A stretch of 64,000 nt of DNA. Source: Paramecium tetraurelia (lineage: Eukaryota). The first letter of the stretch is position 1, and each line of letters starts with the position of its first letter. Positions 35,761 through 43,332 of the stretch are shown here, one piece after another. Made by a program: the position numbers and the translations under genes. The notes under the pieces are model-generated. The model saw only the letters and a list, made by a program, of their open reading frames with translations, was not told where the DNA came from and searched no databases. Location of the stretch: positions 186,001-250,000 of the forward strand of contig CT868002.1 of NCBI GenBank assembly GCA_000165425.1. Direction: 5' to 3'.

Positions 35761-36784
35761 ATGGATAGTCCAGTCACAATATTTTCATTTGTTGGAAGTA
35801 GTGCCACTGGTTTCGCCCTTTACCAACTCGTACCCTTGCTTTCGCAGTTGAAGAAGAAATACATCCAATACCAGCAAATCAATGAATTTACGCCCACCTC
35901 TCTGCTGAATTACTTCAATCAAACTCAGCAAACCACAGTTGAAGCCTTCATTGCAGGAGAATTGATATCTGATAGTCCAATCATCTCAAAGGTCCCTCTC
36001 ATTATAAGTGAAAAGAAAATCTATTACGTTTATGAAAATGGCATGTATATTCTTAACATTATTTCATAGAAAAAAGCTAATCAAAATCATCCAACATGGT
36101 GCATCTTAATTAAGTGTTGCTGACTATTACAATAGAATTGAAATATGGAAAAACTCAACTCTTAATTACCAATTTTCCATGAGTCATATCTGGGATCGCT
36201 TTCTACCAAAACAACTAAGTTTCTTTTAAAGATTTGCAAATTTCATCCTCAAAACATTGAATTAAATCAAAACAAGAAGACTATTTCTCAAAGGCTTTTA
36301 TACTGGATAACTGGAAAGGGAATACGGTATCATAGCAAGGGAATTCTATGTATTATATGGTGAAGTTATACTAGATAAAAAGCTAAATAAGATGTTCCTC
36401 TAAAATCCAAAATTCATTCTCAAAAGCAAGAAACAATTGTTATAGATAATATAATAATAGATTAAATATAAGAGATTAACAATAGCAATTCTAGTTGTTA
36501 TATTTACTATTTGGACATATATTTTTGGTTGTAATGTTAAAAATTTGATTTTTAAAATTCTTAAAGAGAGAGAGAAAGCAAGATTAGATAAGTTAAGAGG
36601 CTAAAAATACTTAGAAATTGATAATTATGAGTGCCAGATTTGTTATGAAAGACCACGAAACATCATTATTAAACCTTGCAAACATCTGACCTTGTGTCAT
36701 GAATGTATATAAAGACTTAAGTAATAAAAATGTCCCATTTGTAAATAATAGATTGAGGATTAAATTGAAATCTTTTTTACTTGA
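35761..36784 (+). CDS. MUL1/GIDE-type membrane RING E3 ubiquitin ligase
   Basis: N-terminal TM, GIDE-like middle region, second TM and a C-terminal RING CQICYERPRNIIIKPCKHLTLCHEC...CPIC; intron at about 36046-36069. Confidence 0.8.
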
Positions 36785-36813
36785 AAATTATATAAATGTA
36801 ATTGATTATTATA

Positions 36814-37811
36814 TCAACATTCATCAATATCAGAATATACAGATTCGTCAACTTCAGCCAAATTATCTAGAATTTCTATTATTCTCGCTTGCTTTAATTT
36901 TTCGCATTCCTACTCATTCTTAGCCAACAAAGACCCTGTAAAACATACTGCATTAAATGATACTCCATTATAAGTTGCTTTCTTTCGAACTACTATCATC
37001 ATAAACTCCTAAGTCATTATTAAGTTGTGTTTGAAATCCTTAATATCCTCTACTTTACACTTATTTAATAGCTTTTCATAAGTTTCGTAAATTAAATTCT
37101 ATTACTATAACTCATCACAATTCTTGCTTTATAATAAATCCTGATTAAAAAATAATATAAAATGCTTGATCTTTTTTAAGTACCTCAACCTTGTAAATTT
37201 GTTTGGCTATTTCACACTCCTCTCAAACCACCATTCTCTTACGTGATTTAATATATTTGCGCTTTGAAATGCTAATTTAGACACAATTTAAACATGTTTG
37301 TGATCTAAAGAAGCCCCCGCCTCACTATGAGAATTAAAAAATGCAAATCCCTCTACTGCGCATAACACATCATAGGCTAAACTTAAGTAATCTTTGCTGA
37401 ACTTCTCACTTTAATGAATAAATTATTTTGGCACCAACAATGTATGGTATGGATTTACAGGATATTTATTCAATAGCAGATTATAATTCTCAAGCTTCAT
37501 AACTAACTGTCCAGGTTGGAAAGGTTCAATTAAAGGATCAATCTATATGTATATTTATACTCCTGCTTACATTTTCTTAATGACACACTGGTTTCTTGGC
37601 TAGAGATTTCACTAATTTTATGTGAAATTCTATTCCTTGTTCGTTTTTAGAAAAAGTTTGTAATACATCAAATGGTTCTACAAACCCCCCATCAGCATTC
37701 GCATTATAACATTGCATTATTTGCTTTTTTATATTCTCACGAAACTCTGCTTTCGTAAACTAAATATACCAAATACTCACTCTACCCCTCTAAATATTCG
37801 ATAAATTCCAT
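36814..37811 (-). CDS. ATP adenylyltransferase / Ap4A phosphorylase (Apa1/Apa2 family)
   Basis: NLLLNKYPVNPYHTLLV, FAFFNSHSEAGASLDHKHVQ (HxHxQ motif), MMIVVRK...FNAVCFTGSLL. Confidence 0.85.
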
Positions 37812-37998
37812 AACTAAACCCTATAGCAACAACCCCAAATAACCCTTTTGAGAATATTTATGATTTCATAAGTAAATTATTTTAATAAACTATATAATAC
37901 TGTGTAACAATGATATCTAAATTTAGACAAAACAATTATTTTAAGGATTGTCATTAGAATAAAATGTTGCATTGATTTAGAAATATAGATTATTATTA

Positions 37999-38337
37999 AT
38001 GTTTCATTTATGTAATGTATAATTATTGGTTAGATTTAGATTATCATTTTCTTTTTTTTTTGATTCTAATCTTCTTTGTGTACTTTTTCTAACAATATTT
38101 TCATCTTTATATATATAAATAAATGGAATTTACAAATTCTTGATTTGATTATCATAAATTCAATGCAAAATCCAAAAATGAATGCATTTCTAAAATGTTT
38201 AAAATACATTGATCTTGCTTTTTATTATACTGTTTATAATTTCTCTGCTGTCACCTCAAATGTATAAAACTTTCCTAATTTCTACTAATCTTTTGATTAT
38301 TTAGACATTTTATTATTTCTATATTATTTATATATAT
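37999..38337. repeat. Left arm of a 339-bp perfect inverted repeat (partner 41557-41895)
   Basis: Reverse complement matches by eye (position pairs sum to 79894), including the T10/A10 run. The ORF track gives an identical 63-aa ORF at 38076-38267(+) and 41627-41818(-). Confidence 0.95.
38004..38308 (-). CDS. 91-aa single-pass membrane microprotein, SMIM4/UQCC5 (UPF0640)-like, copy 1
   Basis: ATG at 38308, 29-nt GT..AG intron at 38133-38105, TGA at 38006-38004. Protein MSKQSKDQQKLGKFYTFEV...AFIFGFCIEFMIIKSRIYENIVRKSTQRRLESKKK...HK*. Confidence 0.7.
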
Positions 38338-38643
38338 ATATTTAATATATTCTTAATTGTGTTGATTATTAATTTCAAGTTAAATCCTATCTTTTATATT
38401 AGAAAGTTTTCCCAAATTTAATTATTTAATTTCAGATATAATATACGCTCTTGTGTCTTGATTAGTAAAATATTTTAGTTGCAGAACTAGATTAATTAGT
38501 TTAAACGAATATTTAATCAATCTTTAACATTTACCTTATCTTAATGTGAGAGTAAGAAATTCAATCTTATTTGAAGGGTTATTATAATAAATTAAATATT
38601 CTATAAATCAATAAATAACTATATTATAATTAAATCATTTGTC

Positions 38644-39484
38644 ATGTTCGACTAAGCATAGTTAACAGAATTGTCAAAGAGAGATAAAGTATTAGTCTCT
38701 TCTAGTTTTAGGATAAAAAGTTGAACTCCTAATTACCTCTCTATATTGGGAATTCTCAGGGTGTTTGTAGAAGAGATATCCTCGTTTAGTGGGTTATTTA
38801 GGTAATTACAAAATATTATTTCAGTAATCTTAAAAATTTGAGCACAGCCTCAAAACCTTGGAATTAGCAGTGATATACATAGATACTTATCTGAATATTT
38901 TTAATATTGAACCTGAATTTTTAGAGCTCTTGGGCATTTCAGCATATTCAATGGCTTCTAAAGTAATTTATTTTTGTAGATTGAAAGTTTAATGAAACAG
39001 AAGCAATAGGCCAAATTAAGTTAAAGGATGATTTTGGCAAAGTGTTATACGAAGATCAAGTATACAACGAAATGGAAGTTCAATTGTTGTAATCCTTAGA
39101 TTTCCAATTAAATCACGTAACTCCATCCGATTATCTGATTGAAATGGGTATTTCAATAAACGAAAGCATTTCCAGTCTCATTATGTTTGTTTTAATGGGT
39201 AAATTATTTGTTATATCATTTAATTAGATTTCGAAATTTATAAACATTCTTAGATTGTTCTAGCATTTGCTATTTTCAACTTTTAATAAGAACAGTCTCA
39301 CATGTTTACAGATAGAGTTAAATCAGTGACTAAATTGATAAACAATAAGTTAAATAAAGCAAAAGAGCAATTTAATTTGGATAAAACTGAAAATGATGAA
39401 ACAAGAGGGCTTGAATCAAATTTAGGCACTTAAAAAAAAATATACAAAAAAAGATAGTCAAAAAAGTTAAAACAATTAGCATGA
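38644..39484 (+). CDS. Cyclin (N-terminal cyclin box)
   Basis: RRDILVQWVIQ...SLKTLELAVIYIDTYL...LELLGISAYSMASKFNE...MEVQLLQSLDFQLNHVTP; four tiny introns. Confidence 0.88.
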
Positions 39485-40143
39485 ATGACTTATCTTGATT
39501 GGTTTCAATGAATTTGATCTAAGGGGAGATCATATAAAATAATAATATATCATTTCATTTCATTTTCTATTTTCCATTCAAAGGATTAAAAAATGTAAAT
39601 CAGAATCCAAATTAACATTCATAAATTTTACTTAATATGCAAATGCTCCTTTTAAAACTACGATACTGCTTTAAATTTATTAAACCATTTAATTCAAGCA
39701 AAGAACAGTCCTGATCCAAAATATAATAGAAAATTTTTCAAATAATGTATTACTTAGTTTAATTTACCTTTTTTCTTTGAAACACAATATAAATTTATAT
39801 AAATTCATATTTCCTCATTTAGATTTAAATTGTAAAAATTATCGTGAATTAATTAAGGTTCTCTCTAATGTTCACAATTATGATGCGATACGAAATAATA
39901 CAATTGATTTTTATATCGTTATCTATTTTTGGACATTAGTTGACCAACAATTTATTATTAATTAATTTTTTATTGAAATTTTAATATCATTCTAAATAAG
40001 TGAAACATAAAGTAAAAGCTATATTCGAAATGACTGAGCAATTTTATTAAAATAAAAATATTATGTAATGTTTATTTAAAAAAGAATAGAGAACAATAAA
40101 AATAAGAATCATACAATAAATGGAACTAATGGACTTTATGTTT

Positions 40144-40952
40144 TCATAATTATTTATTACATCTAAATATATTATTTTTATACCATATTCTACAATTACG
40201 AATACTATGAACATAGAGTCTAATACTTTGAGGATAAAACAACATTCTCTTGATATAAATTTGACACTTAAACTTAATATAACAAATTCTAAAATAACTC
40301 TTTAAATTTACCTGATTTGTCAGTTATTGGATGAGCATAAGTTATTATTTGTTTTAGTCTTCCATGACTTAGATAGGTTGCTGCGTTATTTCCTTTGCAA
40401 TTTCATCTGTCTATTTCTTTAATTCATTTTCCTCTCCAATACCTAGAATAGGATAAATCTATTATTTTACTTTAGTCTTTTGTTACTACATTGAGTCTTT
40501 TGTACATTTAACTTTGTCTTTTTTTGTTCTTACGAATGACTTTTTTACAAGATCTTCCTTCCTTCTTGAAAATCTACATGATCGCCTTTGCTGTTGAGAA
40601 GTTGATACCAAGTTATTATGCTGCACTCTTTATTGTACATCCAGTTTATGTGACTTATTTGATCAAACCCTCTCTCTAATCGTTGGTTATTTTTGCATAC
40701 TTGAGGCCGTGCTTACCTGATTTAAAACTTAAATAATATTGTACCTCTTCTTCTTTTTGTCATCTCTTGTTCATTTGATGATTAAATCAATAATTTCTTA
40801 CATTCCTGCTCCTGCTCTGCTAAACTGAAAGACGAGTCAGAGTCATTATTACTGTGGGAGCCTTGTACAGAGCAAATTTCTTAATCATCCATGTTAGAGG
40901 AATTGACTGGATTAAGTATTTGGCACTGCTAGATTTATTCTTTTGGATCCAT
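40144..40952 (-). CDS. Helix-turn-helix (homeodomain-like / Tc1-IS630 N-terminal-like) DNA-binding protein
   Basis: YAKITNDQREGLIKQVTQTGCTIKSAAQQLGINFSTAKAIMQIFKKEGR followed by a basic tail; intron at about 40717-40744; no DDE domain seen. Confidence 0.75.
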
Positions 40953-41556
40953 ATTTTACATACAAATCAATTTTAAATTAAATCAAACTAAATTATGAGA
41001 TATATTAAGTGATGAATTAAATTGAGAAGACGTCATTGTAATAATTATGTCTCTATTAAGAATATATTAATTTTTATTACACAAACAACTGTTTTTTATT
41101 ACATTAACATCATTTCTATGAATATTTTCTGTAATTATATTAACAAACTTATGTATTTTCAAATTAGTGATAGCCATTTTTATAAAATTCAATTTGTCAA
41201 TATTTTTATAATAATTAATTGAGATTAACAAACACTCTTTGGAACCTTAAAAACAACATAAAGGATGAAATATGGCATTCTGCTTTTTTGAACAGATGCA
41301 AATATTAATTATTCATAATAAATTACATTTTTAAGTCTAATTTCCTATTAAATATAATTTGGTGCTCTACTCATTTTTAAATTTATGATAATTCTAACCT
41401 AAATGAATAAAGTACTATCAAAGTCTTAAACAAATTGAAGTTATGAAAATTAACAAATAATAAAATTGAAATCACTCATTATTAATTATTTAATGTATGA
41501 TTATTAATAATTAAATAACAAAAAATTGTTAAGAATATTAATAGATATTTATATTA

Positions 41557-41895
41557 ATATATATAAATAATATAGAAATAATAAAATGTCTAAATAATCA
41601 AAAGATTAGTAGAAATTAGGAAAGTTTTATACATTTGAGGTGACAGCAGAGAAATTATAAACAGTATAATAAAAAGCAAGATCAATGTATTTTAAACATT
41701 TTAGAAATGCATTCATTTTTGGATTTTGCATTGAATTTATGATAATCAAATCAAGAATTTGTAAATTCCATTTATTTATATATATAAAGATGAAAATATT
41801 GTTAGAAAAAGTACACAAAGAAGATTAGAATCAAAAAAAAAAGAAAATGATAATCTAAATCTAACCAATAATTATACATTACATAAATGAAACAT
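41557..41895. repeat. Right arm of the 339-bp perfect inverted repeat (partner 37999-38337)
   Basis: Exact reverse complement of 37999-38337 as far as can be checked by eye. Confidence 0.95.
41586..41890 (+). CDS. 91-aa single-pass membrane microprotein, SMIM4/UQCC5 (UPF0640)-like, copy 2
   Basis: ATG at 41586, intron at 41761-41789, TGA at 41888-41890; exons total 276 nt; identical to copy 1. Confidence 0.7.
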
Positions 41896-41996
41896 AGTTA
41901 AGCTTTAATAAATTAACATTTCTTTTAAATTACTTGATCATTATCTTGATATAATATTATCATTTATCGAAATTAAAAAGAAATAGAATTGTGATT

Positions 41997-42820
41997 ATGG
42001 ATAATCTTCAGCAAATTTTAGTCCATCAAATCTTAAAACCACTCCATAATTTAACAAATTTAAATCAATTCTTATAAAAGACTAATAATTAATTATATCT
42101 CTGTTTTTTATAATTTTCTTTCAATTCATTTTTAATATTGCATATAAATTATTTTAGCTTACCTTAAGAGTCATATGTTTAAAATATCATTCTTAAAATA
42201 TATATTCTTTTCAAAATTATAATTCTGGATATTCTAACGATATATATTTGAAGTAAAATGACTAATATAATAAAAAGGTTGCTTTGATCAAATTCTATCT
42301 TCAAAGTCATAAATAATCAATCTGCTGCAGATATAAATAATGATAAATACAAAACATAATTAAAAATATTGAATATAAGAGAATATCTAAAAATTAATAA
42401 TTAGACTACAAATTTCTTTTAAACGACATAATTATTTTTTGTGTTATAGCATTGATTTCAAATCTTCTCTTTAGATCCTTCGACACTCTATAAGATGGTC
42501 TTATTCAATACTATTCAAACCTTAAAGTGCTAAAGATAATAATAATAATTTATAAGAGTTAAATCTATTTTAAGGATATCAAGTAACAAAGGATTTGATA
42601 TCAGAACACTGAATTATTTATTACAGTTAACAATAGAAATATATATAATAGTTATGAGAAACATTCTCATAAAATGGGAAGATTCTTATGTTTTTTGAAT
42701 TAGAGAATGTTAATAAATTTTTAATGAATGAACTTGTATTAAATACTGAAATTTATTCAAGAAATTAAGATGAGAATAATATAAAAAATGATAATAAATG
42801 CGTTAATAAATTAAATACAA
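41997..42820 (+). pseudogene. Possible decayed gene remnant
   Basis: Coding-like segments from ATG 41997, repeatedly broken by in-frame TGA and frame changes that GT..AG introns do not explain. Confidence 0.3.
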
Positions 42821-42821
42821 A

Positions 42822-43332
42822 TCATAAAATTAACTGTTCGCTGAGCAGAAAGGCTGGCACTCTTTATTTTTTTTAAACAAGATCTCTAAATTATTATGAT
42901 AATTTACTCTAAGAATAATTTTAACACTCCACTAGACTTATTCATTTCTAAAAATATTTTGGTCTTGTCATATTTTTATTATTTTTAGATTTGATTTTTA
43001 TCTGGTCTAGAAAACGGGTCTTAATGAATTGATAGAGGTCTATTTAAATTATGATAGAGAAATAAAGGATCTTCCTTCATTTAAGCATAATTTGATCTTA
43101 TTTCATCATGAAAGTTTTTCTATTCCTTTTATTCCATGAATCGTTTCTCATATGGTATATACCAATGGTTATAAAATTTTGGTTTTGGGGAAGGCGATAC
43201 ATGTTCCGAATATCTGGAAGTCTTATTATTTTCAATTAATTTTGGTAAGGATTTAAAATTATTTGTTCTCGAACTCTGTGCTTCTTTCATGTGAATACTC
43301 TTTGCTCTTGGTTATAATTTCTGTTATATCAT
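42822..43332 (-). CDS. Small hypothetical protein
   Basis: ATG at 43332; KPKFYNHWYIPYEKRF; intron near 42886-42907; ends QRVPAFLLSEQLIL*. Confidence 0.55.

Follow-up and report, generated by a model that had tools for sequence, protein, structure and literature searches.

How do two copies of a gene, lying in opposite orientations on the same stretch of chromosome, come to be identical in every nucleotide, including those of the intron and the silent sites? This question is raised by a locus in a 64,000-nucleotide (nt) stretch of the genome of the ciliate Paramecium tetraurelia (assembly GCA_000165425.1, contig CT868002.1, positions 186,001 to 250,000 of the forward strand). We refer to this whole stretch as the window and count positions from its first letter. 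Within it, two copies of a 91-codon gene with one intron, here called the small gene, form the arms of an exact inverted repeat around a 3.2-kb spacer. As discussed below, the copies resemble each other more within a species than they resemble their orthologs in other species of the P. aurelia complex, and the duplication itself appears to be old. Ongoing gene conversion between old inverted duplicates best explains the identical pair, and we assign this explanation a probability of roughly 0.7.

The inverted repeat and its arms

The segment 37999-38337 is the exact reverse complement of 41557-41895 (339 of 339 nt). The base-by-base comparison agrees with the inverted identity reported in an earlier note on this DNA, made from its letters and hereafter referred to as the original prediction. 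The elements of the repeat are as follows.

37999..38337, minus strand: left arm, with leader, intron-bearing gene and 5 nt after the stop codon; the gene reads leftwards
41557..41895, plus strand: right arm, an exact copy of the left arm; the gene reads rightwards
38004..38308, minus strand: left small gene, with ATG at 38308, intron 38105-38133 and stop codon 38004-38006
41586..41890, plus strand: right small gene, with exon 1 41586-41760, intron 41761-41789, exon 2 41790-41890 and TGA 41888-41890

The anatomy that had been proposed for each arm is borne out by the coordinates and by translation under the ciliate code (table 6), which gives 91 codons. In the right arm, a leader of 29 nt (41557-41585) precedes the ATG at 41586; exon 1 (175 nt) is separated by a 29-nt intron (GTA...AAG) from exon 2 (101 nt, ending in TGA), and 5 nt more lead to the end of the arm. 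The two small genes point outwards in a head-to-head arrangement, with 3,219 nt separating their 5′ ends. Base matches drop to the background level directly outside both ends of the arms. A repeat finder reports the same arms (as I1) with a length of 385 nt and 95% identity, which corresponds to the exact core plus an ungapped extension at about chance level. Self-megablast of the entire 64-kb window returned no repeat besides the arm pair.

Two expressed copies

Evidence from sequencing reads was drawn from Logan k-mer contigs of public runs rather than from raw long reads. Contigs of one DNA-like run (X1, from 2024, from a study not flagged as the source of the assembly) and three RNA runs (X17, X18, and X20) were compared with positions 36500-41500, a range that includes the left arm only. 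The locus as a whole is well represented in public data, with 16 of 24 listed runs containing 0.99 of the sampled words of the 6-kb stretch 37000-43000. X1 holds one contig of exactly 339 nt, which matches 37999-38315 with 0 variant letters and has its last 22 letters in a TA-rich stretch. Its depth is 58.2, relative to 23-33 for the seven other X1 contigs listed. A contig of the length of the repeat and with about double depth is the expected product of two identical copies with different flanks; a fixed difference between the copies would split the contig. Both copies have differing flanks on both sides and hence constitute distinct loci.

In X17 and X18, one RNA contig each covers the small gene (38033-38315 and 38031-38315, respectively), and in both the 29-nt intron is missing at 38105. 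The small gene is thus transcribed and spliced as predicted. These contigs end inside the coding sequence, within the identical arm, and are hence not copy-specific. If the remaining 14-18 letters at their other end are collinear with the window, the contigs reach approximately 38329-38333, that is, about 21-25 nt before the ATG, and the boundary of the arm lies at 38337; the ends of RNA contigs are not equal to transcript starts. No RNA contig of the three runs lies over 37853-38002, and among these contigs the poly(A) sites of both small-gene copies were not seen. Taken together, the DNA and RNA contigs identify a real, expressed, two-copy macronuclear locus of P. tetraurelia.

Similarity of the copies within and between species

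A search with exon 1 returned 91-residue orthologs in P. octaurelia, P. primaurelia, P. pentaurelia, and P. sonneborni. They are given here together with two neighbors of the P. tetraurelia pair, gene 0 outside the left copy and gene 2 in the spacer, both of which are described further below.

P. octaurelia (578,670 bp): gene 0 not returned; small gene CAD8162263 and CAD8162269; gene 2 CAD8162265
P. primaurelia (394,926 bp): gene 0 CAD8094969; small gene CAD8094971 and CAD8094979; gene 2 CAD8094973
P. pentaurelia (395,945 bp): gene 0 CAD8193942; small gene CAD8193944 and CAD8193952; gene 2 CAD8193948 and CAD8193950
P. sonneborni (380,486 bp): gene 0 CAD8116294; small gene CAD8116296; gene 2 CAD8116298
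P. sonneborni (367,710 bp): gene 0 CAD8118914; small gene CAD8118913; gene 2 CAD8118912

The gene order in these relatives is the order of the protein accessions, and the two orders are assumed to be equal. Placement on the same scaffold was judged by scaffold size, with an outright link to one contig only for the two copies of P. octaurelia. The two gene 2 entries of P. pentaurelia are forms of one gene, one truncating the other.

Copies were compared within and between species at the protein level, apart from the P. tetraurelia pair, which was compared as DNA. The P. tetraurelia copies differ in 0 of 91 residues, and their DNA is identical in the leader, in the intron, and at all synonymous sites. 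The two P. primaurelia copies encode the same protein sequence, as do the two P. pentaurelia copies, with 0 residues differing; these sister species also share one sequence with each other and hence count as one lineage. The P. octaurelia copies are free of substitutions but differ by a 3-residue indel close to the N-terminus. Of the two (CAD8162263 and CAD8162269), one is 88 residues long and the other 91, and the indel is located at a short direct repeat of codons. The indel indicates that the copies are not always perfectly homogenized, and also that the two P. octaurelia copies are separate loci. Between species, 4 of 91 residues (positions 9, 30, 89, and 90) distinguish P. tetraurelia from P. 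octaurelia, while either of them differs from P. primaurelia/P. pentaurelia at 9-10 of 91. Each of these between-species differences occurs in both copies of a given species. P. tetraurelia, P. octaurelia, P. primaurelia, and P. pentaurelia therefore all show, in their protein sequences, what the original prediction expected of conversion, namely copies more alike within a species than to their orthologs. Moreover, in P0006, a gene call from a related Paramecium that reads through the intron, the intron-coded stretch mostly differs from, and is one codon shorter than, the corresponding read-through of P. tetraurelia. This suggests that the intron sequence is not constrained, while both P. tetraurelia introns are identical.

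The arrangement of the genes bears on the age of the pair. By accession order, gene 2 is enclosed by the two copies in P. octaurelia, P. primaurelia, and P. pentaurelia, as it is in the P. tetraurelia window. In P. primaurelia and P. pentaurelia, gene 0 is found directly outside the pair. Judged from this order and from the protein sequences, the duplication appears to predate the divergence of P. tetraurelia/P. octaurelia from P. primaurelia/P. pentaurelia. Seven metagenome contigs from other ciliates (L001-L007) each carry a single copy of the small gene within the DNA examined, and they give no date for the duplication. The DNA covered extended up to 10 kb to either side of the small gene (for L001, 2.9 kb upstream and 0.7 kb downstream), and no relative of gene 0, of gene 2, or of the second spacer gene (gene 1, see below) was found in these stretches.

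Scaffolds paralogous to the locus through whole-genome duplication (WGD) are present in P. pentaurelia (314,096 bp), P. octaurelia (378,862 bp), and P. tetraurelia (275,394 bp, the scaffold of GSPATT00031344001), and by accession number the paralogs of gene 0 and gene 2 are close together on them (e.g., CAD8205683 and CAD8205687). A protein search returned no copy of the small gene among the annotated proteins of these scaffolds. The small gene may have lost its WGD partner.

Limits of the identical segment

The original prediction held that identity stops at the edges of the transcription unit, that the inner flanks keep a faint similarity, and that the outer flanks are unrelated. The inner flanks comprise the following.

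38338..38357, no strand: left inner flank, with a (TA)n length difference and then a 10-mer at 38347-38356
41529..41556, no strand: right inner flank, with the same 10-mer at 41529-41538

The exact match on the 5′ side ends within (TA)n. On each side, a (TA)n stretch of unequal length separates the arm from the shared 10-mer TTAAGAATAT (gene sense), which lies 9 nt beyond the left arm and 18 nt beyond the right arm. Gapped blastn extends the alignment of the arms to 360 columns with 98.3% identity, and weak similarity is seen about 20 nt upstream of the 5′ boundary, which lies in the (TA)n tract. The faint similarity of the inner flanks thus exists in the form of the 10-mer, but it is statistically marginal, as its score is matched by 25 of 300 shuffles for the inner 60 nt and by 46 of 300 for 150 nt. 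It may be what is left of a more extensive homology, or a promoter motif common to both copies. The outer flanks show no significant similarity, with 250 of 300 and 214 of 300 shuffles matching the local alignment score, which agrees with the view that they are unrelated.

The proposed coincidence with the transcription unit does not hold at the 3′ side. Published figures for P. tetraurelia put the 3′ untranslated region (UTR) at 44.6 nt on average (median 44 nt) and the 5′ UTR at 21.7 nt on average (median 19 nt; PMC5485702). The two arms cease to match 5 nt beyond the stop codon, far short of the expected 3′ UTR, and the two mRNAs should therefore differ in most of this region. There is no A-run at the 3′ edge of the arms. 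We read the ends of the arms as limits of the original or surviving homology and not as limits of a transcript.

Spacer orientation in related species

The arms may also have affected the DNA between them. By accession order, gene 2 is positioned beside the copy on the gene 0 side in P. primaurelia (accessions ending in 69, 71, and 73) and on both P. sonneborni scaffolds, and beside the far copy in P. pentaurelia (42, 44, 46, 48/50, and 52), as in the P. tetraurelia window. The literature treats P. primaurelia and P. pentaurelia as close sister species (PMC10195154). To the extent that accession order reflects gene order, these data suggest that the 3.2-kb spacer has flipped between sister species. 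Placed on the species tree, the orientation states imply at least two spacer inversions, as crossovers between inverted arms would give.

A stronger version of this idea is that the arms act as a recombination switch. In this scenario, the spacer flips recurrently, each flip re-homogenizes the arms, and each flip also swaps which neighbor shares a divergent promoter region with which copy; both spacer orientations might then coexist within a species or within the polyploid macronucleus. We consider a switch of this kind unlikely, if worth keeping in mind.

Gene conversion and its alternatives

Ongoing gene conversion between old duplicates would proceed as follows. A small gene with a single intron would have been duplicated in inverted orientation before P. 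tetraurelia/P. octaurelia split from P. primaurelia/P. pentaurelia. Arm-to-arm recombination would then repeatedly overwrite one copy with the other by non-reciprocal gene conversion, such that new substitutions either vanish or spread to both copies, and occasional crossovers between the arms would probably flip the 3.2-kb spacer. The conversion tract would cover all remaining homology, i.e., the leader, both exons, and the intron, and would stop at (TA)n and 5 nt past the stop codon. Two identical copies may be retained for dosage, because no copy was found in the annotated WGD-paralogous regions. We infer the conversion mechanism, the flipping of the spacer, and the dosage rationale from the comparisons described above.

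Several observations weigh against this explanation. Sharp edges together with the lack of significant flank homology would, taken alone, equally fit a fresh insertion of 339-360 nt. The GC content of the arms is 19% (14% at third codon positions) versus 28% for the window, whereas converted Paramecium paralogs are reported to be enriched in GC, a feature that is a correlate of conversion and not a requirement. P. sonneborni has one annotated copy per scaffold on two scaffolds, in each case between gene 0 and gene 2. This species belongs to clade B, described as the earliest split from clade A, which contains the other four species (PMC10195154). The duplication may hence be younger than the aurelia complex, or the annotation of P. 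sonneborni may have missed a copy. A missed copy is conceivable because the protein search did not return the window's own small protein from the NCBI P. tetraurelia protein set. In addition, the concerted pattern depends on protein sequences and on the assumed equality of gene order and accession order, and certain accessions represent isoforms of a single gene (P0014 is P0015 in truncated form). Finally, the assemblies of the sister species were built from fused reads of ~450-bp fragments together with 5-13 kb mate pairs (PMC8354472), and the spacer orientation in such short-read assemblies could be wrong, although mate pairs should in principle resolve it.

The original prediction favored gene conversion, or copying templated by an unspliced transcript, over a simple fresh duplication. 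The part concerning conversion is supported by the within-species protein identity and by the pairs around gene 2, while the part concerning transcripts finds no A-run and no fit to the expected poly(A) site. A copy made or renewed from unspliced pre-mRNA would retain the intron, as observed, and its 5′ edge, 29 nt before the ATG, lies near the ends of the RNA contigs (~21-25 nt if collinear) and near the typical 5′ UTR length of 19-22 nt (PMC5485702). The 3′ limit is, however, difficult to reconcile with the 44.6-nt mean of the 3′ UTR, and both the (TA)n difference and the weak similarity persist upstream of the 5′ edge. Limits at the transcript start and at poly(A), a remnant of an A-tail, and usually the absence of the intron mark a retrocopy; the arms do not show this combination, and the intron is present. 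No such mechanism in ciliates appeared in the literature searched, in a search not aimed at it. Templating by a transcript is accordingly rated very improbable. Recent independent duplications would require a fresh P. tetraurelia copy of 339-360 nt, the pairs of the other species being separate events, or repeated re-duplication replacing the older copy. The perfect identity, the sharp ends, the non-significant flank homology, and the single annotated copies of P. sonneborni are compatible with this idea, and rare recent single-gene duplicates are reported to exist, favoring genes without a WGD partner (PMC10195154). Yet three to four inverted insertions on the far side of the same two neighbor genes would be needed, and even a shared P. 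tetraurelia/P. octaurelia origin still needs conversion to place the four residue differences in both copies. We therefore regard independent duplications as improbable.

The identity might instead have been preserved without any exchange between the copies, by purifying selection on old duplicates. Conservation of the family is strong, with 31 columns invariant in an alignment of 10 sequences and 45 representatives found at E≤1e-3, but purifying selection cannot hold the intron, the synonymous sites, and the leader identical, and the intron-coded stretch differs in a relative. Moreover, the species-specific residue changes are found in both copies. This leaves selection alone with hardly any probability. 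A collapsed repeat, which the original prediction named as the principal alternative, or more generally an artefact of assembly or polishing, would mean that there is one copy only or that differing copies were made identical by consensus. Assembly errors classically arise at short inverted repeats, and the evidence discussed here comes from k-mer contigs and not from long reads. The unbroken 339-nt contig of X1, free of variants, nevertheless ends at the edges of identity as far as it could be placed and has about double depth, and the 16 runs noted above contain nearly all sampled words of the 6-kb stretch. Pairs are also annotated independently in three other species, and the P. octaurelia copies differ by an indel. 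On these grounds a collapsed repeat is rejected, and the probability of an artefact of any kind is negligible.

Relation to known systems

Inverted gene pairs that are kept alike by conversion are known from Drosophila Hsp70Aa/Ab and from the palindrome arms of the human Y chromosome. Head-to-head or palindromic paralogs of this type show near-zero divergence that includes silent sites and persists over evolutionary time, and recombination between the arms can invert the spacer. In eukaryotes other than Paramecium, arm-to-arm conversion of inverted gene pairs is textbook knowledge; the mechanism, gene conversion, is not new, and no new mechanism is implied here. In comparison with Hsp70Aa/Ab and the Y palindromes, the Paramecium pair is far smaller, with 339-nt arms and one 91-codon gene. 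Paramecium is also well known for its very low mutation rate.

Within the P. aurelia complex, gene conversion between paralogs is reported to be widespread (PMC4199370, PMC10195154). These WGD paralogs concern the same organisms and carry the same signature, in that paralogs within a species are most alike and identity extends into non-coding sequence. They differ in that WGD pairs are located on different scaffolds, whereas the pair discussed here is a local inverted single-gene duplicate with copies 3.2 kb apart. Furthermore, most of the conversion between WGD pairs is said to be old: in P. tetraurelia, the longest run of identity within a pair has a median of 108 bp, compared with 339 nt here. 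WGD pairs subject to conversion are also described as raised in GC, in contrast to the GC-poor arms of the present locus. Recent single-gene duplicates are, according to the same literature, nearly absent from Paramecium (median of 28 per genome), which was read as strong dosage constraint, and those that exist favor genes that lost their WGD partner (PMC10195154). The present pair has in common with such duplicates that it did not originate by WGD, that it shows zero divergence, and that no WGD partner was found among annotated proteins. In contrast to truly recent duplicates, it is indicated to be old by the cross-species data and would look recent through homogenization. Among the papers on Paramecium conversion and concerted evolution that a literature search returned, judged by titles and the starts of abstracts, no title concerned a local inverted pair.

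The pair looks as if its age were zero but appears to be shared by at least three aurelia lineages, and it therefore bears on how duplicates are counted and dated. If recurrent flipping were true, some of the "recent" single-gene duplicates of Paramecium would be old pairs held at zero divergence, and such pairs may restore dosage lost with the WGD partner. With arms of 339 nt and a spacer of 3.2 kb, the locus offers a case of arm-to-arm conversion that is very small, clean, and readily accessible to experiments.

The 91-residue protein

The small protein is an uncharacterized member of a family that is widespread in protists. The alignment of 10 sequences and the representatives mentioned above, the latter from a search of 1.84 billion representatives, document its conservation, and the intron position is the same in the seven contigs from other ciliates. 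This position, phase 1 and straight after R/K-I codons, is thus shared even by distant ciliates. On metagenome contigs, gene calls of the prokaryotic type (P0004, P0005, and P0010-P0012) run into the intron and end in "...IC".

An AlphaFold2 model of the P. octaurelia ortholog (P0009) predicts helices at residues 6-15, 21-55, and 57-89 with a mean pLDDT of 81.9, and the single hydrophobic segment lies in the second of these. In the Pfam search, no family reached its cut-off for the small protein. Two clusters of UPF0640/SMIM4 (PF15114) occupy ranks 2 and 3 in an Atlas feature search (0.90 and 0.89), with further small mitochondrial inner-membrane proteins lower in the list. UPF0640/SMIM4 is described as a small mitochondrial membrane protein involved in assembly of the respiratory chain (PMC8719881). 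The two proteins are alike in size and in having one hydrophobic helix, but no member of the family studied here reaches the Pfam cut-off. Among 28 members, one matches PF15114, at 14.2 bits (E 0.043) relative to a gathering score of 27 bits, and P0009, P0007, P0004, and P0005 are without a match to it. The small protein may hence be a small mitochondrial membrane protein, which we offer as a lead and not as a classification.

Searches of structures gave little. A sequence profile (A1) matched 0 chains in the PDB, and Foldseek with the AlphaFold2 model gave 0 matches at E≤10. Another profile (A3) matched residues 60-128 of 2j8a_A ("Histone-lysine N-methyltransferase, H3 lysine-4 specific") with E 1.8e-4; this match, which resembles the hydrophobic segment and the helix that follows it, probably arose by chance. 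Several distant family members (P0063, P0066, P0074, P0076, and P0087) start with MG(A/S)K/S, which resembles an N-myristoylation signal, and the Paramecium proteins start with MSK.

Neighboring genes and locus layout

From left to right, the locus consists of gene 0 (minus strand), the left small gene (minus), gene 1 (plus), gene 2 (minus), and the right small gene (plus). The neighbors are as follows.

36831..37852, minus strand: gene 0, left outer neighbor; RNA contig of X18, two introns; Ap4A phosphorylase / ATP adenylyltransferase-like
38613..39562, plus strand: gene 1, in the spacer; RNA contigs of X17, X18, and X20; introns at 38689, 38800, 38963, and 39198
40066..40981, minus strand: gene 2, in the spacer; helix-turn-helix (HTH) psq-type protein GSPATT00030075001; four introns; RNA contigs

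The gene 0 transcript starts about 150 nt beyond the stop codon of the left copy, and its P. primaurelia ortholog matches the Pfam families PF19327 and PF09830, both of which are Ap4A-phosphorylase families. Gene 1 encodes a 246-residue protein, derived from the spliced open reading frame with its four introns, and is oriented head-to-head with the left copy. We read its product as cyclin-like; a Pfam search with one gene 1 exon gave no match. Gene 2, oriented head-to-head with the right copy, has an exon that matches P. tetraurelia GSPATT00030075001, which lies on a scaffold of 293,094 bp, at 100% identity. Its product shows a weak match to HTH_28, under the Pfam cut-off, and its poly(A) site at 40066 is marked by a T-run in the loose end of an RNA contig.

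A larger ancient inverted duplication or palindrome was considered for the locus and rejected, as genes 1 and 2 are unrelated by blastp and the flanks are not significantly alike. Scans of 37000-43000 with Rfam and for tRNAs returned no RNA genes. Two intervals of about 500 nt each, 39563-40065, where genes 1 and 2 converge, and 40982-41500 upstream of gene 2, have no contig in the three RNA runs, an absence that proves nothing; both seem long for a compact genome. In all four runs, contigs of high depth also align to 40 nt of the conserved HTH exon of gene 2 (40569-40608); they carry 4 mismatches and extend far beyond the aligned piece on either side as loose ends. These contigs fit the presence of many HTH psq-type paralogs in Paramecium (26 proteins at E≤1e-3).

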